IMG/VR virus record: IMGVR_UViG_2974563859_000001 | Direction: 5' to 3' (one strand) | Length of the DNA stretch: 64,000 nt | Origin: a virus | Taxonomy: Duplodnaviria > Heunggongvirae > Uroviricota > Caudoviricetes | Part shown: one piece after another, positions 4,810 through 5,071 of the stretch | How the letters are laid out: each line of letters opens with the position of its first letter | Position numbering within the stretch: the stretch's first letter is position 1 | The notes under the pieces: generated by a model | The model's input: the letters and a program-made list of their open reading frames with translations, nothing else | The model's database searches: none | Told to the model about the DNA's origin: nothing | Made by a program: the position numbers and the translations under genes

Positions 4810-4822
4810 AAATATATATTAT
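4810..4822 (+). promoter_or_regulatory. Early (vRNAP) promoter box AAATATATATTAT
   Basis: Exact 13-mer seen 10 times in intergenic DNA of this window. Confidence 0.75.
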
Positions 4823-4826
4823 AAGA

Positions 4827-5071
4827 ATGTTGAAGTAAGTAAATATCAGAGTATATAGACCTTAATAAATCTCTAAATAGGAAGCATACAACCACCTTGA
4901 TGACGCTTCCGCTTCTTCAACATATAAAGATGGAGGAAGATAAACTCATGTTTAAGGCATTAAGAACAGTATTGTCAATCATTGGATTACAATAAATTGG
5001 GAACCCTAAAACTAGGTTTATATACTATAACGCCATTAGCGATTAAGTTCGCTAATGGCAAATAGGTGGTT
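4827..5071 (+). ncRNA. Putative structured early RNA containing a small ORF
   Basis: atgttgaag 4827-35 / cttcaacat 4915-23; ggaagc 4880-85 / gcttcc 4905-10; aaccacct 4890-97 / aggtggtt 5064-71; 11-bp hairpin 5032-5059. Confidence 0.55.
4948..4995 (+). CDS. Micro-ORF MFKALRTVLSIIGLQ (15 aa)
   Basis: GGAGG at 4932-36, ATG at 4948, TAA at 4993-95; below ORF-track cutoff. Confidence 0.45.
   Translation: MFKALRTVLSIIGLQ

Follow-up and report, generated by a model that had tools for sequence, protein, structure and literature searches.

Type I toxin mRNAs, such as those of hok/Sok, Ibs/Sib, bsrG/SR4 and aapA1/IsoA1, belong to modules with a defining antisense feature, and encode toxins usually of 19–60 aa with a transmembrane stretch, the Ibs toxins being 18–19 aa in length. 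The dual-function RNAs, represented by S. aureus RNAIII/delta-haemolysin and psm-mec, and by B. subtilis SR1/SR1P, are independent structured small RNAs with an ORF for an amphipathic peptide. Phages AR9 and PBS1 are a laboratory model for phages with their own multisubunit RNA polymerases and uracil-containing DNA, and one of the early promoters mapped in AR9 was assigned to gene g214 (Lavysh et al. 2017, PMC5312081). The element described here has the same promoter, the same start and an identical sequence, and is interpreted as a separate RNA.

The closest functional analogues of this element would be the structured small mRNAs found among the type I toxin and dual-function RNAs. As in type I toxin mRNAs, a very short hydrophobic ORF lies in a stable, highly folded RNA with long-range 5′-3′ pairing, but an antisense antitoxin is lacking, the Shine-Dalgarno (SD) sequence is not sequestered by the long-range helices, and the ORF (14–19 aa) belongs to an early gene of a lytic phage, which is transcribed by the virion polymerase. 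With the dual-function RNAs it shares an independent, structured small RNA that contains an ORF for an amphipathic peptide, although its peptide is shorter and there is no sequence or Rfam relation. We consider it reasonably probable that the locus is an independent early unit, consisting of a structured mRNA of ~250 nt for a 15-aa cationic, amphipathic and hydrophobic micropeptide.

The window (the whole 64,000-nt stretch of DNA analysed) is PBS1/AR9-type phage DNA, and is labelled PBS1 below. Positions 4700–5200 were 100% identical to the Bacillus phages vB_BspM_Internexus and vB_BsuM-Goe21 (genus Takahashivirus, PBS1/AR9 group). The early RNA is located in a gap of 423 bp that separates two divergently oriented virion genes. 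This gap has no annotated CDS in the Internexus, Goe21 or BpSp records, and tblastn showed no annotated feature beneath the micro-ORF in Internexus and Goe21. The locus is organised as follows:

3814–4746, minus strand: counterpart of AR9 g213 (310 aa), virion gene flanking the gap
4810–4822, plus strand: early (virion RNA polymerase) promoter box AAATATATATTAT, followed by N6 and the start at G4829
4829–5089, plus strand: whole early RNA, about 250–260 nt, with a mapped 5′ end and a 3′ end presumed to lie in the U-run
5075–5089, plus strand: U-run U7-A-U7, the presumed termination site as read from the sequence
5170–6432, plus strand: counterpart of AR9 g214 (420 aa), virion gene flanking the gap

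Within the phage collection BpSp was the sole diverged genome, with flanking proteins 56–68% identical, and a single metagenome scan added the loci L130 (68% identity) and L131 (54%). Both BpSp and L130 can be aligned across the entire RNA, and the comparison set consisted of three close sequences (PBS1, BpSp and L130) and one distant sequence (L131), the RNA of which was unrecognisable to the covariance model. About a dozen further relatives were present in JGI/Logan/ENA data, with a flanking protein 63–74% identical. Searching IMG/VR with both flanking proteins and an alignment returned only distant phages (25–38% identity) in which the element was absent, while DNA patterns (three in IMG/VR, one in the genome collection) gave only chance matches, as confirmed by the covariance model, and a protein scan of the genome contigs gave no further relatives. 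The covariance model detected exactly one copy per genome. It found no paralogue in either Goe21 or BpSp, and by this model Listeria phage LPJP1 and the Staphylococcus jumbo phages lacked a copy.

The early box proposed by the sequence-only reading is present at 4810–4822, and window positions 4810–4829 fit the AR9 early consensus AAATATATATTAT-(6N)-G (Lavysh et al. 2017, PMC5312081); the box is kept in BpSp, L130 and L131. The AR9 dRNA-seq data include an early start listed for g214 (Table S2: TSS 181724, plus strand, UTR 340, step height 264, TEX enrichment 3.87; PMC5312081), and the 51-nt sequence (−50 to +1) of this entry is identical to window positions 4779–4829, which places the 5′ end of the RNA at G4829 and bears out the earlier proposal of expression at the start of infection. 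A late start for g214 is listed in AR9 Table S3 (PMC5312081), with a sequence identical to window positions 5067–5117 and hence a start at 5117, whereas the late start of g213 in the same table corresponds to 4773/4774 on the minus strand. Expression of g214 was 0.69, 20.7 and 1427 FPKM at 5, 20 and 40 min, respectively (Table S4, PMC5312081), and five genes with early starts of similar step height (g028, g047, g190, g234 and g241; height 204–331) had 88–684 FPKM at 5 min (PMC5312081). Given that g214 shows essentially no expression at 5 min and possesses a late promoter for itself, the early RNA must stop short of 5170, and presumably ends at the hairpin/U-run region (5032–5089), in or before the U-run, making it a separate RNA of ~250 nt. 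The '340-nt 5′ UTR of g214', a gene never mentioned in the main text of the AR9 paper (PMC5312081), is therefore reinterpreted here as a distinct short transcript that bears a micro-ORF. This corrects the published assignment, and extends the AR9/PBS1 model by an early RNA and gene which had not been annotated.

The late promoter of g214 (AACA-N6-TA, 5106–5117) is located directly downstream of the U-run of the early RNA, and by eye is kept in BpSp (L003, about 2003–2016) and in L130 (about 2125–2136, minus strand). Other early starts in the window are at 18945(−), 24822(+), 27176(+), 30213(−), 34017(+), 37039(+), 43056(−), 44416(+) and 50047(−), and most of these transcripts, when inspected by eye, have an SD-like purine tract within about 20–40 nt of the start. 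As these other early transcripts are without a long structured leader, the RNA starting at 4829 is the odd one out.

The region folded better than all 200 shuffled sequences (z = −4.05). Five helices were located on the actual sequences:

4829–4835 with 4915–4921, plus strand: helix P1 (RNA 1..7/87..93), GUUGAAG with CUUCAAC, 6 pairs conserved, 3 compensatory
4850–4861 with 5015–5026, plus strand: long-range helix LR, AGUAUAUAGACC with GGUUUAUAUACU, 12 bp, 3 compensatory
4880–4885 with 4905–4910, plus strand: hairpin P2, GGAAGC/GCUUCC with a 19-nt loop, 6 pairs, all 6 compensatory
4890–4897 with 5064–5071, plus strand: pseudoknot helix PK, AACCACCU in the P2 loop with AGGUGGUU, 8–9 pairs, 4 compensatory
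5032–5042 with 5049–5059, plus strand: hairpin T, perfect 11 bp, GCCAUUAGCGA/UCGCUAAUGGC with loop UUAAGU, 2 compensatory and one wobble change

Four of these correspond to elements of the sequence-only reading. The P2 hairpin, the match between its loop (aaccacct) and aggtggtt 167 nt away, and the perfect 11-bp hairpin are all present where that reading had them, the second being conserved with covariation and the third conserved as well, while the closing helix atgttgaag/cttcaacat (4827–4835/4915–4923) is present in the DNA but comprises 7 rather than 9 bp in the RNA, because the mapped 5′ end is G4829. The LR helix, a second long-range pairing, was absent from that reading, and belongs to the minimum-free-energy fold. 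Compensatory double changes were found at 18 base pairs in the five helices among PBS1, BpSp and L130, at helix positions which are nearly fixed in the three phages (1/87, 22/187, 52/77 and 62/235). The P2 stem is replaced by AGAGAC/GUCUCU in BpSp and GAGGAU/AUCCUC in L130, and the PK strands are AACCGCCUU/AAGGCGGUU in BpSp and AAUCACCCA/UGGGUGAUU in L130. In each of the three phages, a perfect 8–9-nt complement of the P2 loop occurred in only 2–3% of shuffled downstream sequences. Pairs were counted by script, since P2 and PK were shifted by 1–2 columns in both the MAFFT and the model alignment, and the helix registers were picked by eye within 1–2 nt; RNAalifold on the plain MAFFT alignment independently gave LR, T and part of P2. 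With three close sequences and one distant, the covariation rests on few independent events. The distant L131 retains a helix similar to P1 at identical positions (1/87), and its long-range pairings were no better than chance.

As P1, LR and PK mutually cross, they would amount to a double pseudoknot if formed together, or else represent alternative conformers that do not coexist. The PBS1 RNA represents a rare phage mRNA with long-range, mutually crossing helices backed by covariation. The conditions under which the sequence-only reading would have been refuted do not apply, since the region is transcribed and both its helices and its ORF are kept in relatives. We are confident that this structured early RNA exists and is conserved.

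The RNA contains a small ORF preceded by a potential ribosome binding site, with counterparts in all four phages:

4932–4936, plus strand: Shine-Dalgarno sequence GGAGG, 11 nt before the ATG (10–11 nt in all four phages)
4948–4995, plus strand: micro-ORF MFKALRTVLSIIGLQ, 15 aa and stop, with homologues in BpSp, L130 and L131
BpSp: peptide with a TTG start, (TTG)FKLVRIIVSLING
L130: peptide MGKLIKTILLLLGY
L131: peptide of 19 aa, MLRSLFRTLLMIIDIESCN

The start codon is found at RNA position 117–128 in the four phages, and is followed by 14–19 codons; L131 keeps the promoter, the 5′ helix, the SD and a 19-aa version of the ORF. Within codons 2–14, 17 of 39 nucleotides (44%) were identical in every pair, and the BLOSUM similarity of the peptides was reached by 0.01%, 0.04% and about 0.7–1.5% of simulations in which the same number of nucleotide changes was placed at random in these codons. 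Synonymous recoding was also observed (Arg AGA versus CGU, Ser UCA versus AGU), and a six-frame comparison of the PBS1 peptide with the whole intergenic region of each relative ranked the micro-ORF first (p = 0.003, <0.003 and 0.027). The combination of peptide pattern and SD was found only at the syntenic site when compared with 2.2 Mb of control loci, a control that is partly circular because the pattern was derived from the same four sequences. The 15-aa ORF and GGAGG noted earlier are both present, and the ORF is conserved with a protein-type substitution pattern. The alternative 21-aa version starting at ATG 4930 is not conserved, as this codon lies in a different frame in both BpSp and L130.

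The SD spacing of 10–11 nt exceeds the Bacillus optimum, and at 14–15 aa the peptide would be unusually short for a product that is both stable and functional. All the same, the independent transcript is supported by the AR9 data and selection on the coding sequence is supported in silico, which makes a micropeptide gene within the early RNA likely, and would place an ORF of just 14–19 codons under protein-level selection. The peptides are hydrophobic (GRAVY 0.84–1.51, net charge 0 to +2, 14–19 aa) and too short for a standard transmembrane helix. The description of the peptide as amphipathic stands only in a weakened form, with a helical hydrophobic moment of 0.41–0.57, which is moderate and was equalled by 2–15% of shuffled sequences, depending on the peptide.

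A short, hydrophobic and cationic peptide that resembles Ibs in style, on an RNA with long-range 5′-to-3′ helices, could be a gated killer peptide of the type I toxin kind, for which fold-back would silence translation until 3′ trimming or refolding, followed by membrane depolarisation. With 14–19 aa, the PBS1-type peptides are at or below the size of the shortest known toxins. In unconstrained folds the SD is mostly paired in PBS1 and L130 (probability of being unpaired 0.09 and 0.18, respectively), which rises to 0.42–0.64 when P1 and P2 are enforced; the SD is predicted to be paired in PBS1 unless P1 forms and in L130 unless P2 forms, with little difference in BpSp. The conformational gating put forward by the sequence-only reading would correspond to conformer-dependent SD access in the PBS1 and L130 folds, but not in BpSp; moreover, the strand pairing with the SD differs in each phage, and the long-range helices leave the SD uncovered. 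The earlier statement that there is no antisense antitoxin agrees with our results, since no antisense start is listed near the early RNA in AR9 Tables S2 and S3, the minus strand has no early box and no conserved promoter, and matches resembling sigma-A promoters were no commoner than in shuffled sequences. An assignment to the type I modules is consequently not supported, since the antisense feature that defines them is lacking. Taken together, we regard a gated toxin as unlikely.

A late-like motif on the minus strand, AACATGAGTTTA (AACA-N6-TA, 4941–4952, start at 4941), overlaps the start codon of the ORF. It was considered as an antisense promoter and rejected, being at chance level, absent from BpSp and L130, and without a mapped start in AR9.

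Five covarying helices, of which two are long-range, far exceed the needs of a simple mRNA, and may indicate a non-coding structured early RNA that acts as regulator, decoy or protein-binding scaffold, with the SD and ORF being incidental or serving only to load ribosomes for stabilisation. SD-like polypurine sequences are reportedly 5′ stabilisers of Bacillus phage RNAs, according to work on SP82 early RNA. In addition, tblastn found no relatives of the peptide elsewhere, with the 21-aa extended version matching identical phages only. A separate regulatory activity by base pairing or protein binding, as in the dual-function RNA of the sequence-only reading, would be hypothetical for this element, and the conserved P2 loop pairs within the same RNA. 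Against a non-coding role, substitutions in the ORF follow a protein-type pattern although its nucleotide identity is close to random, and the ORF persists in L131 despite an RNA that the covariance model could not recognise. There was also no match to an Rfam family, as the best score in a scan at permissive threshold (27.5 bits, minus strand, versus a gathering score of 47) was sub-threshold noise, and ARAGORN found no tRNA or tmRNA. A purely non-coding RNA is, in our assessment, about as improbable as the gated toxin.

Canonical intrinsic terminators consist of a G+C-rich local hairpin with the U-run within 0–2 nt, and a simple terminator scan found 13 of these in the first 20 kb (3.5 expected), with no canonical terminator in 4700–5200. 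Hairpin T is separated from the U-run by 15 nt in PBS1, 11 nt in BpSp and 15 nt in L130, whereas the 3′ strand of PK is 3, 2 and 5 nt away, respectively, and is the sole helix strand that abuts the U-run in all three phages. As this is the usual site of a terminator stem, the PK helix is a candidate for that function. The arrangement resembles canonical terminators in that the unit ends in a long U-run with a helix strand 2–5 nt upstream, but differs in that this strand pairs with a hairpin loop about 170 nt upstream, and that the local 11-bp hairpin is 11–15 nt from the U-run. From its position, the pseudoknot strand is possibly a terminator stem, and we know of no RNA polymerase for which a long-range terminator stem has been described. 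If so, it would represent a new mode of ending transcripts, and provide a handle on termination by the virion polymerase. In L131 the terminator is an ordinary local hairpin, and the pseudoknot arrangement is thus confined to the closest clade.

A bolder proposal, which we put forward tentatively and hold to be rather unlikely, is that PK provides the functional stem in a split intrinsic terminator, forming a folding- or factor-dependent switch between release of the micropeptide mRNA and read-through into g214. Termination would then occur only once the 5′ domain has folded and the P2 loop is free, and later 3′ trimming to the 11-bp hairpin would remove the PK strand and remodel the RNA. Just past the U-run, UUCCUCCUUU (5093–5102) is complementary to the SD region GGAGGAAG (4932–4939); this complementarity is absent from BpSp, and therefore probably either belongs to the surroundings of the late promoter or has arisen incidentally.

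A promoter, a small ORF and a terminator in front of a gene is the classical layout of an attenuator, and the assignment of the early start to g214 as a 340-nt UTR by the AR9 authors would fit a cis-acting leader, in which the early promoter, leader peptide and terminator control read-through into g214. This is very doubtful, as g214 remained at 0.69 FPKM at 5 min despite an active early start (in one infection condition), possesses a separate, conserved late promoter located past the U-run, and is preceded by no conserved alternative antiterminator pairing, while the peptide is conserved along its full length rather than at specific regulatory codons. A replication origin or primer transcript is suggested by the location between divergent late operons and a change of sign in GC skew, but can practically be dismissed, since the skew tracks the orientation of the genes, with another reversal at about 10 kb, and neither covarying helices nor a selected peptide are expected for a primer transcript.

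We therefore return to the independent early unit with its structured micropeptide mRNA, for which the following course of events can be envisaged. The injected virion RNA polymerase would start at G4829 and stop in the U-run near 5075–5089, with PK probably acting as a long-range terminator stem which forms when the emerging 3′ strand encounters a P2 loop that has already folded, although stopping of the polymerase or trimming of the RNA by other means could also form the 3′ end. P1, positioned at +1, together with the 3′ hairpin and the pseudoknot, may shield the ends of the RNA from the Bacillus RNases, keeping off the 5′ exonuclease RNase J1 and the 3′ exonucleases. The peptide would be a free early product, with either the cytoplasmic side of the host membrane or a host protein as its most likely site of action. 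The function of the peptide, the gating and the split terminator are put forward here as hypotheses.

The same gap was also inspected in more distant phages. In LPJP1 (L004, 1276–1906) it contains an early-box-like site atttatatattataaattcG, about 470 nt of unannotated sequence and a strong terminator, with a 12-aa ORF, MKALIGLFIKDY, that extends into the terminator stem. This ORF was considered as a homologue of the PBS1 peptide and rejected, as the similarity was not significant (p = 0.22). The Staphylococcus jumbo phages MarsHill (L266, 2072–3776) and AH12 (L267, 2093–2890) have, on the minus strand of these loci, AR9-type early boxes (AAATTTATATTATAATTATG and AAATATATATTATAAAAGTG) at the syntenic position between the g213-like and g214-like genes. 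These boxes drive different small, highly charged genes (42–158 aa) with canonical terminators at their ends, and two of the transcripts have a hairpin exactly at +1.
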